A stretch of DNA of 64,000 bases from an uncultured Acidimicrobiia bacterium (GCA_963823505.1 CAWGLY010000008.1:373924-437923); one strand, 5' to 3'. Shown: positions 11,486 to 25,993, numbered from the stretch's first letter. A program made the numbers and translations. The notes: a model not told the origin generated them from the sequence alone.

Positions 11486-13444
11486 TCAACTCTGAGGAGC
11501 GCCCTGCCCAGTTCGGTCTGTGGATGCACTTTCACGGTCGGCGGCGAGGTCGGGGTACCCGTCCGCGAGAACCTGATCGAACGACGCGGTGGGGACCAGG
11601 ATCGAGGCCCCCGACGAGGTGCGATCGCTGGCGACCGGGATGCTCAGGCTGACCACGGTCGTCGGATCGATGTCGCGAAGGCCCCAGGCGAGGCTGATGG
11701 CGTCGGTGAGCCCGAGTTGATTGTCCAGCGTGAATGCGTCCGTGAGCGAGCGGACGGTGCCCGTCAGGTCGCTCGGGGAATCGAAGGTCCTCAGCTTCGA
11801 GAACATCTCGAGCAGCACTTCCTGTTGCCGCTCGTTGCGGGTGATGTCGCTGACGTTGGCCATCGTTCGCCACCGCCCGTCGACCAGCTCCTGGGTACGA
11901 CGCGACCGGACCCAGGACAGCGCCTGCGCTCCGGTTGCCTGGGTGCAACCGGCAGGCAAATCGAGATCGGACTTGCTGTCGCGCACGGCATGTTCGACGC
12001 AGATTTGGATGCCGCCCACTTCGTCGATGATCTGTTCGAAGCCGTCGAAGGTGAAGAGTGCGAAGTGGTCGATGGGGATCCCGGTGAAGTCGGTGACGGC
12101 CAACGCCAGCAGTGTCGGCCCGTTGACGTCGTCGCCGCAGCCGTTCAAGTTTGCGTTGAGCTTCGTGTAACTCTGGGTGCACCGATTCGGCAGGTACAGG
12201 TCACGGGGAAGGGAAACCAGCATCGGCTCCGAGCCGTCTCCCGGCAGGACGGCGAGCATGATCACATCCGCCAAGCCGCCGGACAGGTCGCTTCCGATGA
12301 TCAGCATTGACAGGTAGTCGCCTTCGGCGGCAGGAACGGCCGTGACCACAGATGCCGTCTCCGGATCAACCTCGGCGTCGACGATGCCCTCGGTGGGAAG
12401 CAACAGGAGGTCGTTGGCGTCTGCAGTGTCGAAACCCTCCCGTCCGACGCCTGCCCACGAGTCCCACAGCTGCAGGCCGTTCCACCCTGTGTAGGCGAGC
12501 AGTACGAGCACTGCCGTCGCCACGCCGCGCTTGAGGCTGCGGAGGATCGGGTGTTGATCGATCGACTTCGGGCTCGGCGCGGCTTCATTGATGAGGAACC
12601 CAACGGCCGGCGCACCGACCCGATCGGCGCGGTCGCACGCCGATTCGAGTGCCACGCGGTCGGCGGCTTTGGGGAGCACCAGGAGCGTGCCGTCGGCAAC
12701 GGCTCCGAGGGCGCTGGTTGCGGCTCCGTTGGTGGGTGCCGTGTCGATCAGTACGAGGTCCGCCGCCGTCGTGACGTCCTCGATGGCGCCGGCCAGCGCA
12801 ATCCGGTCGATGCTGCCGTTGATGGTGGCGCCACCCGAGGGGACGAAGGGGAGGCGGCTCGTGCCGTCGATGGACCACAAGCGAGCTGCGTCGCGCAGAG
12901 TGGCGTCGCCTGACGCGATGTCGGACAGGCCCGGACTGGTGCCGGTTCGGCCAAACCGGCTCAGGTTGCCGCGGCCCACATCACCGTCGATGAGCAGGGT
13001 GCGCCGCCCCGCCTTGGTTGCGGCGACGGCGAGGTTCAGTGCAGCAGAAGTCGCGCCTTGGCCGGCCTCGATCCCTGCCACGAGCAGGACCCGTCCAGGG
13101 GTGGCGGCCTCGAGCCGGCTCGCCGCTCGCTGGTAGGCGGCTGCGGCGGAGCTCGACGGGTGGGTGAGCGTTGGCGCCGGGCCATCGATCGAGTCCGGGA
13201 TGGATCCGACCTGGGGCAGGTCGACCAGCTTCTCGACAGGGCGCAGGCCGGCGAACTGGTTCCATATCAGCCACACGATCGCCGAGACGAGGCCCCCGAC
13301 CGCAGCTGCGATCACGGCGCCCCGGTTGCTGTCCCACACCTGGAGCGCCAGCGCGAACGCCACCAGGCCGGCGGCGACGGCGGCGATGTTTTGGGGTGCG
13401 AAGAAACGGCGAAAGAAGCCGTTCTTGTGGGACTGATCCCTCAC
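11486..13444 (-). CDS. fusion protein: N-terminal 2-TM anchor + BY-kinase/MinD-like P-loop domain with degenerate Walker A + TM + C-terminal LytR-CpsA-Psr (LCP) domain
   Basis: BY-kinase-like motifs: LLIDGDVGRGNL (Walker A'), LPFVPSGG, DLVLIDTAP (Walker B). The Walker A is GIEAGQGATS, with no Lys. LCP motifs: LSMLIIGSDLSGGLADVIMLAVL, VSLPRDLYL, IPIDHFALFTFDGFEQIIDEVGGI. Confidence 0.75.
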   Translation of the reverse strand: MRDQSHKNGFFRRFFAPQNIAAVAAGLVAFALALQVWDSNRGAVIAAAVGGLVSAIVWLIWNQFAGLRPVEKLVDLPQVGSIPDSIDGPAPTLTHPSSSAAAAYQRAASRLEAATPGRVLLVAGIEAGQGATSAALNLAVAATKAGRRTLLIDGDVGRGNLSRFGRTGTSPGLSDIASGDATLRDAARLWSIDGTSRLPFVPSGGATINGSIDRIALAGAIEDVTTAADLVLIDTAPTNGAATSALGAVADGTLLVLPKAADRVALESACDRADRVGAPAVGFLINEAAPSPKSIDQHPILRSLKRGVATAVLVLLAYTGWNGLQLWDSWAGVGREGFDTADANDLLLLPTEGIVDAEVDPETASVVTAVPAAEGDYLSMLIIGSDLSGGLADVIMLAVLPGDGSEPMLVSLPRDLYLPNRCTQSYTKLNANLNGCGDDVNGPTLLALAVTDFTGIPIDHFALFTFDGFEQIIDEVGGIQICVEHAVRDSKSDLDLPAGCTQATGAQALSWVRSRRTQELVDGRWRTMANVSDITRNERQQEVLLEMFSKLRTFDSPSDLTGTVRSLTDAFTLDNQLGLTDAISLAWGLRDIDPTTVVSLSIPVASDRTSSGASILVPTASFDQVLADGYPDLAADRESASTDRTGQGAPQS

Positions 13445-13528: not shown

Positions 13529-15391
13529 TCAGCCCGTTGGTGTCGGGCCTGAATCGCACGGTTGGGGAGAATAGATCCCCTCGATGATCCCTTCCGGGTC
13601 GGTCGAGGATACCGGGCCCCACAGCAGCGTCGCGTTGTCTGACGTCCGCTGCAGGATGAAGTGTGTGGTGCCGTCGATCTCCTCGTACGACACGAGGAAG
13701 GTGGCATAGGTCGTCTCCAGGTCCTCGACCGTGTCCCCTACCTGAAGTCCCGACAGCGTCTCCAGGCCGGTCGCGGGGTGAGCTTCGCTCCCTGAGTCGA
13801 CCCTGTAGCCCTCGAACACCGAGAGATCTTCGACCCCGAGGAAGATGCCTGTGAGGGGTCCCCACGACGCAAAGAAGCCCGCATCACCATCGCACAGGCC
13901 GAGTGATGTATCCGCCGGGCCCCGCTCGTCCGGTTGCCCGAACGTGGCCACCAGCCGGCCGAGGGCGTCATCGTCACCAAAGTCGAGCGGTCCGAGCGCA
14001 AAGCCGCCAAGACCCAGATCCCCGATCGGGATCGGGTCTCCGATCGGCTCGATCGGGGCAAGGCTGGTTGTCGTCGTTGTCGAGGTGGTTGTCGACGTGC
14101 TGGTCGTCGGGCCGGCGGTGGTGGCGGTCGAGTCGTCGACCACGGTGGTCGACACGTCCGTGCCAGCAGGTGCGGCAACGTCGGCGGGGGTTCCGTCGTC
14201 GCGAGTGATCCATGCCAGCACCACGAACCACGCCGCGATGATGCCCACGATGATCAACCCAACGATCAGTCGCTGTGACATGTTGCTGCCGCTTCCTGAG
14301 CCACCTCCTGGTTCTTCAGGGGCTGCGAAGAAGTCCGACTCGTCCGGGTGCTCGCCGGGGAAGGAGCCCGATGGGCTTGGGCTCACCGGAGTTGTCACCG
14401 CCGGTGCTGCCGTGGCGGCCGCGATGTCGGCGGCTGCGTCGGGATCGGAGCCGGCAAAAGCCGACCACGCATCCTCATCGTCGAGCATGTCATCAGATGC
14501 GGCGCTTGGATCCACGTCGCCGATGCCGGCGTCGTCGAAGATGTTGTCGATCTCGTCCTGTGGGCCGCTGTCGCGAGCAACGGCTGCCGCGCCGGCGAGC
14601 GCCCCTCCGGCGAAAACATCGTCGTGGTCCACATCGGGCACCTCTGCCATGGGGTCGGTCATCGGTGGTTCGGCGATCGGCGGTGTGACGGGCGGCACGA
14701 TGGGGTCGGGATCGGCGGCCACGATGGCGGGGATCTCGATCGAATCGGCATGATCGATCGCATCGGCATTGTCTACGGGGCCGGCATTGTCTACGGGGCC
14801 GGCATCGTCTACTGCTTCGGCAGGAGGGGCCGGCTCGTCGGCCGGGTGCTCGCCGGGGTCGGCGAAGGTCTCGTCCACGGGCGTCTCGGGAGGTGGAGGA
14901 GCTGCTGGGATCGGCGCCGGATCGGCGTCGACCCAGGTCATCGGGGGTGGTGCGGCGGCGGTGGGGGCGGCAGCCTCCGCAACGGTCTCTTCGGCCGTTG
15001 CGGTTTCCTCACCGGACGCAACGTCCACCAGGTCACGGTCGCCGGTCCCGTCTGCCTCTTCGCCATCGGTGACGCCCTCCTCTTCGAACGTCGACGAGAC
15101 GATCGCAGCCATCGCAGCGCTGCCGACCTCCCAGCCGGTTGCGGTGTCACCCGCGTCGGTGCGAGACGGCTGTGCAGTCGGGGGCGGCGGTCCGGTGGGA
15201 GGTTGATCATTCGGCTCGGTGTCGGCACCTGCCTCCACGGTCGGCTCGGCCGCTGCGGCGGTGTCGTCCTGCGGGACCGCAGGGGTGGCGGCATGCGCAT
15301 CGATCCAGCCTCTCCCGCAGGAGGGGCAGGTTTCGGCGGCGAGGGGTCGGTCTTTCCCGCAGAAGATGCACGGCGTAGAGAAGGTATCCAT
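13529..15391 (-). CDS. zinc-ribbon / disordered acidic-proline-rich / single-TM / Thr-rich protein with C-terminal domain paralogous to 10454..11356
   Basis: ATG at 15391. N-terminal CIFCGKDRPLAAETCPSCGRG zinc ribbon. About 350 aa of low complexity. TM IVGLIIVGIIAAWFVVLAWI. Poly-Thr/Ser stretch. C-terminal domain homologous to the gene at 10454. Confidence 0.55.
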   Translation of the reverse strand: MDTFSTPCIFCGKDRPLAAETCPSCGRGWIDAHAATPAVPQDDTAAAAEPTVEAGADTEPNDQPPTGPPPPTAQPSRTDAGDTATGWEVGSAAMAAIVSSTFEEEGVTDGEEADGTGDRDLVDVASGEETATAEETVAEAAAPTAAAPPPMTWVDADPAPIPAAPPPPETPVDETFADPGEHPADEPAPPAEAVDDAGPVDNAGPVDNADAIDHADSIEIPAIVAADPDPIVPPVTPPIAEPPMTDPMAEVPDVDHDDVFAGGALAGAAAVARDSGPQDEIDNIFDDAGIGDVDPSAASDDMLDDEDAWSAFAGSDPDAAADIAAATAAPAVTTPVSPSPSGSFPGEHPDESDFFAAPEEPGGGSGSGSNMSQRLIVGLIIVGIIAAWFVVLAWITRDDGTPADVAAPAGTDVSTTVVDDSTATTAGPTTSTSTTTSTTTTTSLAPIEPIGDPIPIGDLGLGGFALGPLDFGDDDALGRLVATFGQPDERGPADTSLGLCDGDAGFFASWGPLTGIFLGVEDLSVFEGYRVDSGSEAHPATGLETLSGLQVGDTVEDLETTYATFLVSYEEIDGTTHFILQRTSDNATLLWGPVSSTDPEGIIEGIYSPQPCDSGPTPTG

Positions 15392-17710: not shown

Positions 17711-18757
17711 ATGGCGGCGAGCAAAGCGCGTGACAAGGTCATGGACCGAGCGGTCCGTGAGCGTCAGGAAGCGAAAGAGCGAATCGAACGAGACACCCTG
17801 TCTCGGTCCCGACGCGATCGCGACCGCAACAAGCTCACCGACGAGCGTGGCCGGCTGACCACCGATCTCGTCAGCCAGTATCTCACCGCCATCGGCGAGT
17901 ATGAGCTGCTCACTGCTGAGAAGGAAGTCGACTACGCCCAGAAGATCGAAGCGGGTCAGGACGCCGGCGAGAAGCTCGAGAAGAAGCAGTTCAAGGGCAA
18001 GGCCGAAGAGATGGCGCTGCGCCGTCGGGTCCGTCACGGCCGTGAGGCCAAAGATGCGTTCCTCACTGCCAACCTCCGCCTCGTCGTCGCCAACGCTCGG
18101 CGCTACGCCAACACGTCCGGCATCGACTTTCTCGACCTGATCCAAGAGGGCAACCTGGGCCTCATCCGTGCCGTCGAGAAGTTCGACTGGCGCAAGGGCT
18201 TCAAGTTCTCCACCTACGCAACATGGTGGATCCGGCAGGCCATCACGCGCGCCATCGCCGACAAGTCTCGGACGGTGCGGATACCTGTACATCTCCACGA
18301 CACCCTTGCGGCCGTTCGTGCCGCCCAGGCCAGCCTCAAGGCCGAGCTCGGTCGCGAGCCCAAGCCCGAAGAGATCGCCGAGGAGGCCGGTGTCAACGTC
18401 GACAAGGTCGAGCTCGCCCTCGGTGTCGCCGACACCGTCTCGCTCGAGCAGCCGGTCGGGGAAGACGGCGCCCAACTGGGTGACTTCATCGAGGACGAAG
18501 ATGCCATCGACCCCGTGAGGGTCACCGAAGAACTCGACATTGCGAACAGCCTGCGCAAGTCCATCGAGCGTCTACCGGTCCGCGAAGGCCGCATCCTGGC
18601 GCTGCGCTACGGCTTCTACGACGGCGTGCCCCGTACTCTCGAAGAGATCGGCGAGGAGTTCAACCTCACCCGAGAGCGCATCCGCCAGCTCGAAAAGCTG
18701 GCGCTGTGCCGCCTTCGCCACCCTTCCTTTGGGATTCGGGAGCAAGACCTGCTCTGA
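17711..18757 (+). CDS. RNA polymerase sigma-70 factor, principal-like (group 1/2), compact with basic N-terminal extension
   Basis: Regions 1.2-4 are conserved ([50 protein letters not shown], region 4 [10 protein letters not shown]). 348 aa. Confidence 0.9.
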
Positions 18758-19246: not shown

Positions 19247-21637
19247 TCAGGCCGTGGGGATCCACACCAAGGTCAGGTCCTCGATGTGGATGTCGGTCTT
19301 CTCGAGTGGCACCTCGATGGTTTCGATGTCGGCGCCGACTTCTTCCCACTCGTCGTTGATCGCCTCGAGTTCCTCGACCATCTCGGCCTCGAGCGCAGCC
19401 ATCTCCTCCCACTCGGTGACCGCCTTGTCCTGAGCACTGCGGAGACGCTGTTCCTTGTTTCGCGTCTGCTGACGGCGGCGAGCCGATCCGGTGACGGACC
19501 GGGTCGACTTCTTCCCCGTGAGGATTCCAATGAGCGCACCGGCGCCTTCGAGCAGCTCGCTCTGTTGTGCTCCGCCCACGTCGACCTCGAGTTCTGCGAC
19601 CCGCCGCTCGGCTGCTTCGTACTGCTTCTTGGCGGTACGGATCCGAGCCTCGTACTTGGTGCGGAGCTTGGCGACCTGCTCGTCGGCACGGTCCTCAGCT
19701 GCGGCATCGCACCGGGCGGCGAAGTCTTCCTGACTCTCGCCGGCTCGCGAGTAGAGCTCGAGCTTGGTGTTCTTCTGGATGGCGAGCTTCCTGGTTCGGT
19801 ACAGGTGCTCCTTGAGCGAGGTTGCCGCCGAGGCGAAGAAGGTCTTGGTGTCGATGGGTTCTGTCGGGAGCTCGTACACCGCACCCTCAGGGCCGGCAGG
19901 ACCGAAGTCACGGTCGTCGTAGTCGACGTGCACGAGCGCATCCGTGTCGAACCCGTCGCCAATGGGCGCGATCGCTTCCCATTCCTCGGCGTGGTCGAGG
20001 CCGGCAGCACGATCGTCGTAGATCAACTGGACTCTCGCCGCCAGCGCTGCCACGAGGCGGGCGCCGTCCTCGTCGCCGCCAGCGTCATTCAGCCAAGGGG
20101 CACCTGGTTGAACGTGCAGGACCGCCACGCCTTCGGCGACATGCGGCATCACGGGGGTCTCATCGGCGGCGAGATCTGGCGCCGGCGCCTTGGGTGCGGA
20201 CACGGCGTCCCCCTGAGTGGGCTGTGGCGGGGCATCGGGCGCCGCACCGGGGCGGCCACCCTGAAGCTCTGCAACCTGATCTCTGGTGAGCGGGCCCGCC
20301 AGGTACGAAAGTGCCCAGCGGGTGGTGAACTGCACAGGCTCGGCGTCACGGGTGTTGTGCAGGAGAAACTGGCGCTTGCCCAGTCCGGAGATGGTGGCGT
20401 CGAGGGCGCTGACATCCGTGTCACCTCTCGCCGATTGCAGGGCCTCGAGGATGCGCGCCTTGTCACGCTCGGTCTGGAGCCGCCCTACACACCAGGTCCC
20501 GGCGTTGGACATCGCCTTGTAATCGAGATCGACAGGGTTCTGCGTCGACAGGAGCATTCCCACACCAAAGGCACGCGCCTGCTTGAGGATCGTGAGGATG
20601 GGCTTTTTTGCCGGCGGCTCTGCGGTGGGCGGCACAAAGCCGAACACCTCGTCCATGTAGACCATCGCCCGCAGATCCCCGCTCCCCGGCTGGGTGCGCA
20701 TCCACGTGACGACCTTGGAGAGGATCAGCGTGACGATGAACTGGCGCTCCTCGTCGGAGAGATGGGCCAGGTAGATGATGGCGGCCTGCGGCTTGCCCTG
20801 CTCGTCCCAGAGCAGTTTGCCGGCGTCGAGGGGGGCACCGCTCACCCACTCGGCAAACGATGGCGACGCCAGCAACCCGTTGAGCTGCATCGCCAGCGCC
20901 ATCCTCTCCTTCTCCGGGTAGAACGCATCGAGCTCGAAGACGCCCAGCTTGCGCAGCGGAGGGCGCTGGATGTGGGCAAGGAGCGTCGCCAGATCCAGGT
21001 CCTTGCCTTGGCGCCACGCATGCTCGATCAGGCTGGCGATGAGGATGTGCTCCTTGGAGGAGATGGGGTCGGCATCGAGGCCGAGCAGGCCGAGCAGGCC
21101 GGAGGCAAAACCTTCGATCTCGTCCCGCAGGTGCTCCGCGTCGGTGTCCCAGTCCATGCCGGGGTTGCGCAGCGAGCCGACGATGTTGATCGGAACTCCC
21201 GCACTGGAGCCTGGGGTGTAGATCGTAAATCCTGTTCGCTCGTGCAACTCAGCGATCCGGGAGCCGTCCTGGCCCCATGAAGCCAGCCCGCTCTTCCACA
21301 GCTCGGCCTTTTCGCCTGCCAGCTCTGCAGTGGTCTTACCCGCCTTCCGGGCCTCGGCGGGGTCGACCCACGGCTCAAAGTCTGCAGGTAGCAAATCGGG
21401 GAAGGTGAGGAGCAGGTTCGTCATGTCCCCTTTGGGATCGAGGATCAATGTGGGAATCCCCTGGAGGAGCGCCTCCTCCAGGTAGATGATGCCGAGGCCG
21501 GTCTTGCCCGAGCCCGTCATACCCACGATCACCCCGTGGGTCGTGAGGTCGCTGGGGTCGTAGTCGACGAGGTGGTCGGTTCGGTCGCCGCTCGACGGGT
21601 CGACTGCGGCTCCGAGAAACAGACCTTCCGTGGTCAC
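19247..21637 (-). CDS. HerA/FtsK-superfamily (DUF87-like) P-loop ATPase with long C-terminal Pro/Ala linker and coiled-coil region
   Basis: GTG start at 21637 with AGGAGGA SD 5 nt upstream. N-terminal Walker A GMTGSGKTG followed by LILDPKGD (HerA-like). Walker B MVYMDEVFGF. The LSTQNPVDLD motif is present. The last about 370 aa are Glu/Arg/Ala-rich heptad-like coiled coil. Confidence 0.7.
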   Translation of the reverse strand: MTTEGLFLGAAVDPSSGDRTDHLVDYDPSDLTTHGVIVGMTGSGKTGLGIIYLEEALLQGIPTLILDPKGDMTNLLLTFPDLLPADFEPWVDPAEARKAGKTTAELAGEKAELWKSGLASWGQDGSRIAELHERTGFTIYTPGSSAGVPINIVGSLRNPGMDWDTDAEHLRDEIEGFASGLLGLLGLDADPISSKEHILIASLIEHAWRQGKDLDLATLLAHIQRPPLRKLGVFELDAFYPEKERMALAMQLNGLLASPSFAEWVSGAPLDAGKLLWDEQGKPQAAIIYLAHLSDEERQFIVTLILSKVVTWMRTQPGSGDLRAMVYMDEVFGFVPPTAEPPAKKPILTILKQARAFGVGMLLSTQNPVDLDYKAMSNAGTWCVGRLQTERDKARILEALQSARGDTDVSALDATISGLGKRQFLLHNTRDAEPVQFTTRWALSYLAGPLTRDQVAELQGGRPGAAPDAPPQPTQGDAVSAPKAPAPDLAADETPVMPHVAEGVAVLHVQPGAPWLNDAGGDEDGARLVAALAARVQLIYDDRAAGLDHAEEWEAIAPIGDGFDTDALVHVDYDDRDFGPAGPEGAVYELPTEPIDTKTFFASAATSLKEHLYRTRKLAIQKNTKLELYSRAGESQEDFAARCDAAAEDRADEQVAKLRTKYEARIRTAKKQYEAAERRVAELEVDVGGAQQSELLEGAGALIGILTGKKSTRSVTGSARRRQQTRNKEQRLRSAQDKAVTEWEEMAALEAEMVEELEAINDEWEEVGADIETIEVPLEKTDIHIEDLTLVWIPTA

Positions 21638-21787
21638 ATTTCCTCCTGGCTGGGACTCCGGAGAGTGTAGGGAACGCTTCAAAGGACACGCCGTGGCCCG
21701 GCATGCGCCGGTCGTCCCAAGTCTCACGACACTTCGGTGAGCAGTGTCTAGGCTCCGCACATGGAAGCGATACCCAGCCCGCAGCAC

Positions 21788-22210
21788 ATGAGGGCGTGGC
21801 GGTCCAGCCTGACGGCGCATTCTCGGATCGTGGCCCGTATGTCTGACGACCTCGTGCGCGAGGCGCGGCTTCCCTTGCCCTGGTACGAGGTGCTGCTGTT
21901 GGTGAAGGAGAGCGCAACAGGGCAGCTACGGATGCACGAGCTCGCCGACTCCCGGTTGTTGAGCCGAAGCGCGGCGACACGGCTCGTCGATCGGATCGAG
22001 CGGGCGGGGCTCGTCACGAGGATCGCCGCAGAAGAGGATCGGCGGGGAACCTTCGTGGAGCTGACCGACGACGGTCTCGCTACATTGCGGGCCGCGGCAC
22101 CCATCCACCTGCGCGGCATCCAGGACTACTTCGCCGCCCAACTCAGCGACGACGAGGCCGTCATGGTGGACGGCGTGATGCGTCGCATGGTCGAGGCACT
22201 CGCCAACTGA
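21788..22210 (+). CDS. MarR-family transcriptional regulator
   Basis: Winged-HTH pattern (LPLPWYEVLLLVKESATGQLRMHELADSRLLSRSAATRLVDRIERAGLVTR). Divergent from the HerA-like gene. Start may be 21761 or 21788. Confidence 0.7.
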   Translation: MRAWRSSLTAHSRIVARMSDDLVREARLPLPWYEVLLLVKESATGQLRMHELADSRLLSRSAATRLVDRIERAGLVTRIAAEEDRRGTFVELTDDGLATLRAAAPIHLRGIQDYFAAQLSDDEAVMVDGVMRRMVEALAN

Positions 22211-22247: not shown

Positions 22248-22805
22248 TCAGCGTGCGCGCCCGAATCCAAGTCTCTCGATCACGAGAGCGGCGGCCTCGT
22301 CAACCGTCTCGACGCACGTCACGAGCGACCCGTCGGTGTCGAGGCGGCTCGTCACCATCGCCACGAGCTCGCGCCACGTAGCGCCAACGGCGACGATGGG
22401 CGCTGGCACCGATCGGTTGTATCGGGCCACGAACGCGACGTTCCACGCGACGAGCAACTCGGTGAAGGTCCCGATGCTCCCGGGAAGTGCGATTGCGCCG
22501 TCGGCGATGTCCACCATGTGGCGGATACGGTCGGTGAGTGATTGCGCGCGGTGCTCGGTCGAGATGTACGGGTTGGGGCCGGCTCGGTCGGGAAAGACCA
22601 ATGGAGCGGTAATACCCACGACGTGCCCTGAGGCTGCCGCTGCGCCCTCGGCCGCGGCCTCCATCACTCCACCGTATCCACCGGTTGCGACCACGAGACC
22701 TGCAGCGGCCAGCAGACCGCCGCACCGTTCTGCTGCCACCCAGTTCGGCGATCCCGCAACGGTGCTCGAATCTCCGAAGATCGCCACGGTTGTCCGGGTC
22801 GCCAC
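22248..22805 (-). CDS. LOG-family protein (TIGR00730 Rossmann-fold nucleotide-binding / cytokinin riboside 5'-monophosphate phosphoribohydrolase-like)
   Basis: VAIFGDSS N-terminus, GGYGGVMEA and PGSIGTFTEL motifs. 185 aa. Confidence 0.8.
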   Translation of the reverse strand: MATRTTVAIFGDSSTVAGSPNWVAAERCGGLLAAAGLVVATGGYGGVMEAAAEGAAAASGHVVGITAPLVFPDRAGPNPYISTEHRAQSLTDRIRHMVDIADGAIALPGSIGTFTELLVAWNVAFVARYNRSVPAPIVAVGATWRELVAMVTSRLDTDGSLVTCVETVDEAAALVIERLGFGRAR

Positions 22806-23373: not shown

Positions 23374-24708
23374 TCAGGCCTTCGCGCTGCGCACCACGAC
23401 GGCAACCAACATTTCGTCGCCAACGTTGTGGATGGCGAGGGCTCGTTCGGCCGGTACCTCGATGACGTCGCCGGTAGCCATCCGGGTGGCGCCGGTCGAT
23501 CCTTCACCGCTCACGACGACCCAGGTCCCAGGATCGAGGTCGACGGAAGCTCCTGGGGCCACGTCGAACCGGTCGACGGCCGCGGAGCCGTACGCAATCA
23601 GACGGGACGATGACCCCCAGGTGTGGCGGTGCGACGGAGATGATGTCGCTTGGGGGTGGCCTCGTTTGGCCAGCTTCTCCACCAGCTTTTTGAGATCGTC
23701 ACTCCCGCCGCGGCCCGTGACGAGGACGGCATCCTCTGTGGCAACGATCACGACGTCGCCGATCCCCGTCGCCGCAACCAATGGGCCCTCGGATCGCACG
23801 TAGCTGTTGGTGACACGCTCGATGACGACGTTTCCCGCGGTGACGTTGCCGTCCCCGTCTGCCACGCCTGCGGCGTGGAGCGAGTCCCACGTGCCGAGGT
23901 CGCTCCACCCCGCATCGAGCGGTACAACGACCGCATGATCCGTGTGCTCCATGACGGCGTAGTCGATCGAGATCGCCGGCGCCTCGCCGAATGCCGCGGC
24001 GTCGAGCAGCAGGCTGCCATCCGGAGCCGTGACTGCGTTGGTGACCGCACGGCGGGTCGCCGCCAGGACTTCGGGCGTATAGCGGTCCAGCTCATCGCAG
24101 AACTGTGACGCGGTGAACATGAACATGCCGCTGTTCCAGAGGTACTCGCCCGAAGCGAGAAACGTCTCTGCCGTGGTGCGATCCGGCTTCTCCACAAAGC
24201 GCTCGACGGGGCGCACATCGCCCCCTCTGGCTGCCTTGATGTAGCCGTAGCCGGTAGCCGGGTACGTGGCGACGATGCCGAAGGTGACGAGCTTGCCATC
24301 CTTCGCCGAAGCGGCACCGACCAGCACGGCTCTGCGGAACGCTTCCTCGTCGAGAATCAGATGATCGGCGGGCATGACGAGGAGGAGGGGATCGGCGCCC
24401 TGGTACGTCAGCGCCCCCGCCGCCACCGCAGGTGCAGTGTTGCGCCCTACCGGTTCAACGACCACCCGACCGTCGGTGTGGCCTGCGGCGATGAGATCGC
24501 GTTGGACGTCTTGGACATGAGCCGCGTTGCACACGACGATCGGTGGGGTCGATCCTTCAATGCCGTCGAGGCGCGCGATGGTCGACAGCAACATGGTGCG
24601 TTCGTCGACGAGTGGAATGAGCTGTTTGGGTGTGTCCGGCCGCGAGAGCGGCCAGAGCCGCACCCCGACCCCCCCGGAGAGAATCAATGGAACAAGCGCT
24701 GGTGTCGT
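23374..24708 (-). CDS. manC: mannose-1-phosphate guanylyltransferase / mannose-6-phosphate isomerase (type II PMI with cupin C-terminus)
   Basis: Nucleotidyltransferase motif LILSGGVGVRLWPLS, then a central GMP region and a C-terminal cupin (GSAAVDRFDVAPGASVD...HNVGDEML). The start is ambiguous; GTG at 24708 was chosen so that it does not overlap the divergent neighbour. Confidence 0.8.
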   Translation of the reverse strand, partial: TTPALVPLILSGGVGVRLWPLSRPDTPKQLIPLVDERTMLLSTIARLDGIEGSTPPIVVCNAAHVQDVQRDLIAAGHTDGRVVVEPVGRNTAPAVAAGALTYQGADPLLLVMPADHLILDEEAFRRAVLVGAASAKDGKLVTFGIVATYPATGYGYIKAARGGDVRPVERFVEKPDRTTAETFLASGEYLWNSGMFMFTASQFCDELDRYTPEVLAATRRAVTNAVTAPDGSLLLDAAAFGEAPAISIDYAVMEHTDHAVVVPLDAGWSDLGTWDSLHAAGVADGDGNVTAGNVVIERVTNSYVRSEGPLVAATGIGDVVIVATEDAVLVTGRGGSDDLKKLVEKLAKRGHPQATSSPSHRHTWGSSSRLIAYGSAAVDRFDVAPGASVDLDPGTWVVVSGEGSTGATRMATGDVIEVPAERALAIHNVGDEMLVAVVVRSAKA

Positions 24709-24772
24709 CACGCCGAGCAATGTAACCGAAGCGCGTGGGGCTCCATCTCGCTCGTGGCTACGCTCCGGTCCC

Positions 24773-25993
24773 ATGTTGGACATCTCCACTGTTCGCAGCC
24801 GGTTTCCTGCCCTGTCCCGAACCCTCGGCGATCGGCCCGTCATCTACGCAGATGGTCCCGGCGGCACCCAAGTCCCCGACTCGGTCATCGCCGCGATGAC
24901 GGACTTCCTCGCTCGGGGCGGCTCCAACCTCGGTGGGCCCTTTGTCACGAGCGAAGAAACCGATGCAACGGTCCATGCCGCCAGAACGGCGATCGCCGAT
25001 CTGTTCAATGCATCACGGCCGGAAGAGATCTCGTTCGGTCAGAACATGACATCGATCACTTTGTCGCTCGGCAGGGCCCTTGCGCACACGTGGCAGCCGG
25101 GCGACGAGATCCTGTGCACGCGGCTCGACCACGATGCCAACGTCTCGTCGTGGATGGCGGCAGCATCGGAGGCGGGCGCGGTCGTCGGGCTCGTCGACTT
25201 CGATGTCCGCGACGGGACCCTGGACCCGCAGCGTGTCGCCGCAGCCATCACACCGCGGACTCGTCTGGTTGCAATCACGCACGCGTCAAACGCGATCGGG
25301 ACGGTGGTGGACGTGGCCGCGATCACGAAGATCGCCCACGACTTCGGGGCGCTGGTGTTCGTTGATGCAGTCCACTACACGCCGCATCGGGCCGTGGATG
25401 TCCAAGCGCTCGGCTGCGATTTCTTGGCGGCGTCGGCGTACAAGTTTTTTGGTCCCCACACGGGTGCGCTGTACGCGCGTCTCGATCTTTCTGCCCACTT
25501 GGATGCGGTGAAGATCCGGCCGGCGCCTGAGGAGCCCCCGGGGAAGTGGGAGTCCGGCACGCAGAGCTTCGAGAGTCTTGCCGGTGTGACGGCGGCGGTC
25601 GACTACATCGCCGAGCTTGGCCACGGGTCGACGCGACGTGCTCGCGTGGTCGGCGCCATGGAAGAGATCGCCGAGCATGAACGGGCGCTCTCCGCCCAGT
25701 TCCTCGGAGCGGTCACGGCGTTGGACCGCGTGCGGGTATACGGCCTGCCGACACCCGACGGCCGCACCCCCACCTTTGCCGTGGCAGTCGATGGCCTGAC
25801 GCCGCGGGAAGTGGCGACGGCGTTGGGGAGGCAGGGCATCTTCGTCTGGGACGGCCACTACTACGCACTCGAAGTCATGCGGCACCTCGGCGTCTTGGAC
25901 AGCGGTGGCCTCGTCCGTATCGGCTTTGTGCACTACAACACGATGGATGAGGTCGGGCAGACGGTTGCGGCCCTGGCAGAGCTCGTCTCGTAA
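24773..25993 (+). CDS. aminotransferase class V / cysteine desulfurase-like PLP enzyme (SufS/CsdA-like)
   Basis: ATG at 24773, in frame inside the supplied 24527..25993 ORF. PLP-lysine motif SAYKFFGPHTGALY. Class V fold signatures (ITHASNAIGTV, FVDAVH). Confidence 0.8.
   Translation: MLDISTVRSRFPALSRTLGDRPVIYADGPGGTQVPDSVIAAMTDFLARGGSNLGGPFVTSEETDATVHAARTAIADLFNASRPEEISFGQNMTSITLSLGRALAHTWQPGDEILCTRLDHDANVSSWMAAASEAGAVVGLVDFDVRDGTLDPQRVAAAITPRTRLVAITHASNAIGTVVDVAAITKIAHDFGALVFVDAVHYTPHRAVDVQALGCDFLAASAYKFFGPHTGALYARLDLSAHLDAVKIRPAPEEPPGKWESGTQSFESLAGVTAAVDYIAELGHGSTRRARVVGAMEEIAEHERALSAQFLGAVTALDRVRVYGLPTPDGRTPTFAVAVDGLTPREVATALGRQGIFVWDGHYYALEVMRHLGVLDSGGLVRIGFVHYNTMDEVGQTVAALAELVS

Follow-up and report, generated by a model that had tools for sequence, protein, structure and literature searches.

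Motors of the FtsK/HerA superfamily power chromosome segregation and conjugation, the packaging of viral DNA, the repair of DNA and several defense systems. FtsK carries its targeting part, a membrane domain, at the N-terminus, the FtsK-like ATPases of type VII secretion transport proteins, and the HAS-barrel of HerA contacts NurA. Structures of HerA are hexamers, and the structure entry for YjgR, of the DUF853 family, holds six chains (PDB 11kk). Here we describe a protein of this superfamily encoded on the minus strand (19247..21637, stop codon included) of a 64,000-nucleotide stretch of DNA from an uncultured Acidimicrobiia bacterium (GCA_963823505.1 CAWGLY010000008.1:373924-437923; this whole stretch is the window below, and coordinates count from its first letter). 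The superfamily and the deposited sequences are known; what is new is a FtsK/HerA-superfamily motor with an undescribed C-terminal module. To our knowledge the family formed by this ATPase and its C-terminal module has never been studied, and no literature on the architecture was found. Taken together, the statements made below on identity and genomic context are ones in which we have high confidence. As to function, we tentatively favor a stand-alone P-loop motor of the FtsK-HerA superfamily that carries a tethered stalk and serves a constitutive, non-defense function, a reading that we judge slightly more apt to fail than to hold.

The gene begins with GTG and encodes 796 aa, of which residues 1-460 (20258..21637) are predicted from their conserved motifs to be a catalytically intact ATPase of the FtsK/HerA fold, DUF853-like and devoid of a HAS-barrel. 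The motifs by which the earlier note had recognized this open reading frame (ORF) are all present in the minus-strand translation ending at 19247. Walker A, GMTGSGKTG (residues 39-47; 21497..21523), is invariant in an alignment of 31 homologs and at least 95% conserved in a second alignment of 73 full-length family members (38-79% identity), which also supplies the statistics on the hairpin tip given below. It is followed by the ILDPKGD strand and loop (residues 65-71; 21425..21445), whose DPKGD corresponds to the D-x-KGD of YjgR (ADVKGD), by Walker B, DEVFGF (residues 329-334; 20636..20653), with D329 and E330 invariant, and by the sensor motif LSTQNP (residues 363-368; 20534..20551), the counterpart of SQNP in YjgR. 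A conserved Pro-rich loop, PPtAePPaKkP, comes directly after Walker B, and residues 334-342 have a predicted local distance difference test score (pLDDT) below 50. The segment GRLQTERD (residues 385-392; 20462..20485), in which G385, R386, L387, Q388, T389, E390 and D392 are invariant across the 31 homologs, is a candidate arginine-finger segment by analogy with HerA-type rings. Altogether, 113 of the 460 ATPase columns are at least 95% conserved in the 73 members, including those of Walker A, Walker B, QNP and GRLQT.

The AlphaFold2 (AF2) model of the full protein, built from a 32-sequence alignment, has a mean pLDDT of 80.9 and shows a RecA-like core with a largely helical insertion (approximately residues 70-280) between Walker A and Walker B. 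Ahead of the core strand 34-38 it has just strands 6-12 and 19-26; because only these two short strands precede Walker A at residues 39-47, the HAS-barrel is absent. Foldseek searches with the core recovered HerA (Thermococcus, Sulfolobus and Deinococcus), Sir2-HerA, TdpA, the DndH C-domain and VirB4, at E-values of 1e-10 to 1e-8 and 12-17% identity. DUF87, the HerA central domain, is the sole Pfam family above its cut-off (27.5 bits versus 23.2) in a scan of the full 857-aa maximal ORF (see below), and its match is confined to the P-loop region. PF05872 (DUF853, 'HerA-like C-terminal') scores 25.3 bits with the ATPase part alone and 16.1 with the full ORF against a cut-off of 22, and some family members carry a precomputed match to it. 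With the ATPase part, FtsK_SpoIIIE (PF01580; E=0.2, 11.5 bits versus 24), AAA_10 (14.2 versus 27.5) and TrwB_AAD_bind (12.1 versus 20.5) all stay under their cut-offs. The NCBIfam equivalogs for HerA (helicase_HerA NF040819, 18.2 bits versus 970), antiphage HerA (NF042943, 35.8 versus 800), CedB, CedD and TraD fall far short of theirs. The HerA/FtsK core named in the earlier note is thus borne out by DUF87, by Foldseek and by the weak NCBIfam matches to HerA, CedB and TraD; of the profiles it had listed for checking, DUF87 passes, AAA_10 fails and DUF853 passes with the ATPase part only. No orthology to FtsK, TraD or conjugation proteins emerged. Reading the protein sequence, with no dedicated transmembrane predictor run, revealed no evident hydrophobic segment of transmembrane length.

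By profile comparison, the closest named family is DUF853/YjgR (PF05872, PDB 11kk), which is collinear with our protein over the whole ATPase module. We compared it with a 7-sequence alignment of E. coli yjgR and six further genes from Beta-, Gamma- and Alphaproteobacteria, Bacillota, Bacteroidota and Actinomycetota, and hhalign matched residues 3-465 to YjgR 1-405 at 94% probability (E 1.2e-7, 372 columns). Both place the P-loop about 30-40 residues into the protein, lack a HAS-barrel, share the motifs D-x-KGD, QNP and GP(L/V)T (from BLASTP and hhalign), follow the core with a low-complexity linker and are encoded by a solitary gene. The C-terminal element of YjgR, ...VRGMLGSLLGGRRR, joins a Gly-rich hydrophobic helix to a basic cluster, a pairing also found in our protein. 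The two nevertheless differ in that core identity is just about 23%, in that DUF853 proteins are about 500 aa long (versus 796 aa), with a short amphipathic tail and without the 300-aa alpha+beta/hairpin module, and in that hhalign finds no profile-level similarity between the C-terminal regions.

The other members of the superfamily lie further off. Canonical HerA proteins (archaeal, and of the Deinococcus HerA-NurA pair) share the RecA-like FtsK/HerA core and the DUF87 match and are the best structural matches (E 1.6e-10, 14-16% identity), but they have an N-terminal HAS-barrel of about 100 aa and a NurA partner, read QRP where this protein has QNP in the sensor, and lack its additional C-terminal module. 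The anti-phage HerA proteins (Sir2-HerA/Nezha, DUF4297-HerA, TdpAB) have the same ATPase fold, and the PADLOC HerA models match at about 1e-9; unlike in those systems, no Sir2, DUF4297 or TdpB effector occurs in the window or recurs across the 81 loci analyzed below, and the context is a housekeeping one. The best PADLOC match is mad8 (PDLC04140, E 6.8e-14), which aligns residues 91-461 of the 857-aa ORF with profile positions 21-266 of 314; because the profiles of this system (MADS) derive from HHpred alignments to PDB structures, we read the match as a generic fold signal. MADS is defined by the mandatory presence of mad6, mad7 and mad8 together within 10 genes (bioRxiv 10.1101/2023.03.30.534895), whereas here only the generic mad8 profile matches were seen, and mad6 and mad7 were not found in the flanks. 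FtsK/SpoIIIE proteins resemble ours in joining a motor, a long Pro-rich flexible linker and a separate targeting part, but the domain order here is inverted, there is no gamma domain that reads KOPS sites, no transmembrane segment is evident on reading the sequence (again without a predictor), and the gene does not lie with cell-division genes. VirB4/VirD4 proteins are also similar in structure, VirB4 (4ag6) being a good match with a TM-target of 0.67, and our protein has, between its two Walker motifs, a large helical insertion reminiscent of the all-alpha domain of TrwB; they differ by the sub-threshold AAA_10 and TrwB_AAD_bind scores, by the type IV secretion genes that are not seen near our gene and in that the plasmid collection yielded no full-length copy.

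Beyond the ATPase, the protein extends for about 336 aa, comprising a 37-aa linker and a 299-aa alpha+beta module. The linker (residues 461-497; 20147..20257) is Pro/Ala-rich (49% P+A), as the earlier note had seen, and is predicted to be disordered (pLDDT 28-49); across the family it varies from 30 to 77 aa and has zero conserved columns among the 73 members. The C-terminal module (residues 498-796; 19250..20146) is modeled by AF2 as a family-specific alpha+beta domain with an inserted helical hairpin, and when modeled by itself it has a pLDDT of 90.1. Its strands fall at residues 506-509, 527-542, 547-558, 587-589, 617-623, 772-777 and 783-795, with a helix at 598-615; the hairpin, two antiparallel helices at residues 636-706 and 713-769 (19331..19732), has pLDDT values mostly of 85-96 in the AF2 secondary-structure assignment (DSSP) and would be about 10 nm long, reckoned at 71 residues per arm. 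The earlier note had described a heptad-like coiled-coil extension of about 370 aa. The extension itself stands at the shorter length given above; a single long coiled coil does not, the module being alpha+beta with helices of that kind only at 636-769, and neither does the heptad pattern, since the 3.5-residue hydrophobic periodicity compared with shuffled sequences gives p=0.70 for helix 1 and a borderline p=0.05 for helix 2. The hairpin call rests on the AF2 model and not on heptad statistics.

Searches with the C-terminal module produced no Pfam match even at E-values up to 10, no PHROG match, no sequence relative in the PDB by profile search and, in fold searches, just generic coiled-coil matches, in agreement with the earlier claim that the module is absent from canonical HerA and matches no known domain. 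With the C-terminal 283 aa as query, however, 1639 representatives of 50%-identity clusters were retrieved, 723 of them at E <=1e-10. In the full-length proteins, of about 800 aa, the match is always C-terminal. We considered stand-alone versions of the module and rejected them: the shorter matches that we inspected are N-terminally truncated fragments starting inside the ATPase or linker, or a frameshifted copy, and hence the module is known only fused to this ATPase. It is far less constrained than the motor, with 4 of 299 columns at least 95% conserved in the 73 members (versus 113 of 460).

The best-conserved property of the module sits at the hairpin tip (residues 696-733; 19439..19552, minus strand), where an uncharged Gly/Ala-rich 12-mer, LEGAGALIGILT, is followed by G708 and then by a polybasic Ser/Thr-rich stretch, KKSTRSVTGSARRRQQTRNKEQRLR. 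G708 is invariant (73/73). In the 12 residues that precede it the mean charged fraction is 7%, versus 46% in the remainder of helix 1, and 68 of the 73 sequences have at most one charge there; the 25 residues that follow average a net charge of +6.1 (from +3 to +10) and contain 6.4 Ser/Thr in the mean. The hydrophobicity of the tip patch ranks in the top 1.2% of 14-residue windows. From this composition we infer that the uncharged patch and the polybasic stretch belong to a type of element with affinity for anionic membranes or nucleic acids. Separately, we observed that the tail of DUF853/YjgR proteins (E. coli yjgR at L081:4562-6064, and loci L082-L087) is conserved at its C-terminal end as ...AKSxARSxGxxxGRxxVRGxLGSL(L)GGxRR in Gamma-, Beta- and Alphaproteobacteria, Bacillota, Bacteroidota and Actinomycetota (six classes sampled). 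This tail is amphipathic (hydrophobic moment 0.43-0.55), is preceded by a variable charged or low-complexity linker and looks like a C-terminal membrane-targeting helix. Homology between it and the hairpin tip was considered and rejected, with hhalign of the C-terminal regions giving 0.4% probability; the resemblance is one of composition only.

The family to which the protein belongs is very large. Its matches number at least 8000 clusters at 90% identity, all 8000 scored candidates having matched, which places the ORF and its architecture far beyond chance, and the top 120 matches, of 754-844 aa, cover 95-100% of the query. In species-representative genomes, at least 593 pattern matches, out of the 600 listed, encode a relative. 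Full-length members among the matches listed come from Acidimicrobiia, Thermoleophilia and other Actinomycetota, Gemmatimonadota, Chloroflexota, Planctomycetota, Myxococcota, Acidobacteriota and some Gammaproteobacteria, and in single instances from Bacillota, WOR-3, Chlorobiaceae and Bathyarchaeia. Compared with the window protein, the ATPase has a median identity of 61% and the C-terminal module one of 38%, and nearest relatives mostly track taxonomy. Searches by tblastn of 72,556 plasmids found no full-length member, the three matches being to the ATPase only at about 25% identity, and those of 50,697 phage records found none either. On these sequence comparisons, we take the family to be large, unnamed, already deposited, chromosomal, mostly vertically inherited and slow-evolving, with the window protein as an ordinary member. 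The earlier note had presented the protein as a new single-gene variant: the C-terminal module is indeed undescribed, but the protein is one of a very large deposited family related to DUF853/YjgR.

The start of the gene differs from the one first assumed. The maximal ORF (19247-21820, minus strand) has 857 aa counted from its first ATG at 21820, which the earlier note took as the start. In all 31 aligned homologs, however, the protein begins at the position equivalent to 'MTTEG', which corresponds to the GTG at 21637 in the window. A Shine-Dalgarno sequence, AGGAGG (21642..21647), lies 4 nt upstream of this GTG as read from the sequence, and the database protein P0001 is 796 aa long and 100% identical to the corrected product. 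We moved the start to GTG 21637 for these three reasons. Further upstream, a pairwise alignment with the locus of the closest relative (L001) brought out a common element, TCCCTACA(C/A)TC, which contains a -10-like TACA(C/A)T; in the window this is TACACT (21664..21669, minus strand), which can only weakly be proposed as the -10 box of the ATPase gene, and a consensus sigma-70 scan of the upstream region gave no match. Control by the SOS response or by PafBC was considered and rejected, as the 260 nt upstream of the gene contain neither a LexA box nor a RecA-NDp (PafBC-type) motif at any of the 73 loci.

To place the gene in context we called and clustered ORFs in 81 loci (80 fetched, and the window). 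The most frequent neighbor family is found in only 15 of these. Of 74 upstream neighbors 20, and of 67 downstream neighbors 15, lie within 60 bp in the same orientation; these are scattered over many families, and because they are so few and so varied we consider the gene to be usually monocistronic. A Pfam census of the 135 immediate neighbors (72 loci) gave 119 families with at most five instances of any one (CBS), and neither NurA nor Sir2 is among the recurrent families. A PADLOC census of the same neighbors gave four phospholipase D (PLD)-like, DrmC-like proteins and one DpdF-like protein, the rest being generic. A conserved partner gene was sought by this clustering and census and rejected, none having been found. 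The orphan status given in the earlier note, with no NurA, Sir2 or other usual partner, therefore holds both in the window, where none is adjacent, and across the 81 loci, where none recurs.

Two of these neighborhoods deserve description. In the Anaerolineae loci L058, L066, L071 and L077, the PLD-like gene (e.g., L071:1661-2737) lies directly upstream of the ATPase gene in the same orientation, overlapping it by 4 bp in L066 and by 46 bp in L071; its product has two PLDc_2 domains, an N-terminal hydrophobic segment and matches to the DrmC profile. The DpdF match (E 5e-195 in PADLOC) is likeliest to be L045:10467-13832 of Euzebya sp., a co-oriented gene for 1122 aa that starts 72 bp downstream of the ATPase gene and is itself followed by an ORF of 1222 aa.

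In the window, the immediate neighbors of the ATPase gene are genes for a CBS protein and a MarR-family protein. In the clade of the window the genes run in the order ManC, a protein of 141 aa, LOG, (MarR), the ATPase, a protein with a CBS pair, a sigma-70-type factor and a DUF255 protein with a thioredoxin domain, and context is kept within clades. Identity to the window across syntenic loci is 50-77% for the ATPase, 48-51% for LOG, 51-65% for DUF255, 38-55% for ManC and 86-96% for the sigma factor; because these values are comparable, the ATPase evolves like a core gene. Pfam finds in the window flanks the LytR_cpsA_psr fusion, DUF255, sigma-70, ManC, a class-V aminotransferase, a ClC channel and the large subunit of exonuclease VII. 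From the conserved synteny we consider that the ATPase gene in Acidimicrobiia sits in a housekeeping block, in place of the variable island for which the earlier note had suggested looking. The G+C content is flat (0.63-0.68 throughout), and the window has no compositional island. PADLOC matches in the flanks are generic only (the sigma domain to MzaA, and the class-V aminotransferase/cysteine desulfurase to DndA/SspA), with no other Dnd or Ssp genes, no mad6 or mad7 and no Sir2/DUF4297 effectors in the scan; a defense island at the locus was accordingly rejected.

The MarR-family gene (21761..22210, plus strand; Pfam MarR_2, 2.2e-12) is divergent from the ATPase gene, as first described, although the spacer between the GTG and the ATG at 21761 is 123 bp and not about 150 bp. 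It adjoins the ATPase gene in 2 of the 81 loci, namely the window and L001, where the MarR protein is 62% identical. In the window the LOG/SLOG-family gene (22248-22805, minus strand) is co-oriented with the ATPase gene, and in L003 and L004 LOG is directly upstream of it, co-oriented and 15-36 bp away. Only in the window and L001 does the MarR gene stand between the two, on the other strand. Comparison of these arrangements suggests a lineage-specific insertion of MarR between LOG and the ATPase, formerly a pair. MarR would be at most a local regulator, and we judge it to lie outside the unit. That it represses the ATPase gene from the shared intergenic region in response to a small-molecule signal, as a divergent regulator-target pair, is an unlikely prospect and lineage-specific at best: divergent autoregulated pairs are typical of MarR regulators, and the layout recurs in L001, but besides the rarity of the adjacency and the LOG placement in L003/L004, no inverted repeat of 8 nt or longer turned up between the two genes, and the upstream element common with L001 is only the -10-like box. 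MarR as a partner of the ATPase was rejected on the rare adjacency and the missing inverted repeat, and the MarR link is unsupported.

Turning to function, we posit that the ATPase would assemble into a ring, probably a hexamer, as do HerA, FtsK and YjgR, and would spend ATP on moving or remodeling a polymer, for which DNA or some other polyanion is the likeliest candidate. Such a ring translocase is reasonably probable by analogy with hexameric HerA and the six-chain YjgR entry. The C-terminal module on its flexible tether would then serve as a targeting or anchoring stalk, with the hydrophobic and polybasic tip docking the motor onto an anionic surface (membrane, nucleoid) or a substrate; a stalk of this kind, taken from the AF2 model, is possible but doubtful. 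The function would be constitutive and cellular and not that of a defense system. Several points weigh against this proposal. The oligomeric state, the substrate and the function of the stalk are all matters that we infer. The hydrophobic moment of the tip is ordinary (0.29 versus a background of 0.25), and the tip may be plain hairpin core packing or an inter-subunit contact. An AF2 monomer model cannot separate an intramolecular hairpin from an intermolecular coiled coil. A few nearest neighbors cross phyla (Gammaproteobacteria with Gemmatimonadota or Actinomycetota, Bathyarchaeia with Chloroflexota) and, as sequence relationships, point to occasional horizontal transfer or mis-binning. The PLD-like gene is the sole candidate operon partner seen, though confined to one clade, and the DpdF-like gene is the sole specific defense-gene neighbor among the 135. 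Finally, YjgR/DUF853 is itself still described as uncharacterized (bioRxiv 10.1101/2025.04.28.650974).

Among the alternatives, the anti-phage role advanced in the earlier note would take the form of a single-gene defense in which the HerA-type motor senses or attacks invading DNA and the C-terminal module is the sensor or effector. HerA-family ATPases are the cores of Sir2-HerA, DUF4297-HerA and TdpAB, which are top structural matches here, and the best PADLOC matches are likewise to mad8 and HerA models; the family is also patchy across phyla with some cross-phylum nearest neighbors, and the DpdF-like locus and the four with DrmC-like PLD neighbors could be read in the same direction. Yet neither the ATPase protein nor its conserved neighbors feature a nuclease, Sir2, TIR, protease or other effector domain, the antiphage-HerA equivalog is far from its cut-off and the MADS profiles are generic, the gene belongs to a conserved block of housekeeping genes and equals its neighbors in conservation, flank matches are generic (sigma domain, cysteine desulfurase), and the phage and plasmid collections yielded no full-length member. 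On this balance we regard defense as highly improbable. A HerA-type translocase of DNA repair or recombination, which would resect ends or process forks together with a nuclease encoded elsewhere, shares the HerA-fold core, with the Deinococcus and archaeal HerA-NurA proteins among the top structural matches, and the polybasic tip and a Lys-bearing pore-side loop are compatible with DNA binding; the gene for the exonuclease VII large subunit about 6.5 kb away is a weak point in its favor. It is nonetheless unlikely, given that no NurA or other nuclease is conserved beside the gene in the 81 loci, that the HAS-barrel is absent, that the 260 nt upstream at 73 loci have no LexA box or RecA-NDp motif and that helicase_HerA scores far below its cut-off.

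The motor might instead be directed at proteins, as an unfoldase, an EssC/EccC-like secretion ATPase or a chaperone-like device with prefoldin-like, client-capturing stalks. The precedent of the FtsK-like type VII secretion ATPases makes this conceivable, and one family member (P0103) is named 'chaperonin cofactor prefoldin' in one source. The similarities behind it are, however, those of generic hairpins, no transmembrane segment is evident on the sequence reading already mentioned (for which no predictor was run), and secretion genes are not conserved nearby, a CpaF-like T2SSE ATPase appearing in just two Chloroflexota loci; we hold a protein-directed motor to be very unlikely.

Several further features of the window were recorded alongside this analysis. 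At 11486-13444 (minus strand), a 652-aa ORF combines an AAA_31 region (ParA/MinD/BY-kinase-like, under the Pfam cut-off) with a LytR_cpsA_psr domain, an unusual fusion for a cell-envelope polymer ligase. The adjoining 620-aa ORF (13529-15391, minus strand) has an N-terminal zinc-ribbon-like CxxC...CxxC motif, a very long acidic low-complexity region rich in Pro, Ala and Asp, one hydrophobic segment and a C-terminal globular part, and matches nothing in Pfam or PADLOC. ARAGORN called an 85-nt tRNA-Glu(TTC) at 18644-18728 (minus strand) inside the ORF of the sigma-70 factor (17711-18757, plus strand); Rfam at the gathering threshold found no tRNA anywhere in the window, which makes the call a probable false positive. 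The maximal ORFs of the ManC-like nucleotidyltransferase (23374-24843, minus strand) and the class-V aminotransferase (24527-25993, plus strand) overlap by 317 bp; since the domain of the aminotransferase is not reached until residue 106 of the ORF, the real start of this gene is probably downstream. The DndA/SspA matches of this aminotransferase amount to generic similarity to cysteine desulfurases.

Our favored reading, a constitutive motor with a tethered stalk, could be part of something wider. The window protein and DUF853/YjgR might together constitute an unrecognized branch of the FtsK-HerA superfamily, made up of self-sufficient ring motors that lack the HAS-barrel and bring their own anchoring device. 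In the family described here the device would be the 10-nm stalk with its membrane- or polyanion-binding tip, and the task would be a constitutive one, such as membrane-proximal handling of DNA or nucleoprotein, in Actinomycetota, Chloroflexota, Gemmatimonadota, Planctomycetota and others. Branch, device and task taken jointly are on the unlikely side. A HerA-like core by itself is no evidence of defense, and the genomic context argues against defense in this case. Finding the ligand of the stalk and the cargo of the ring would give a function to thousands of proteins now annotated as 'DUF87 / ATP-binding', and the same knowledge would probably inform the equally obscure YjgR of E. coli.

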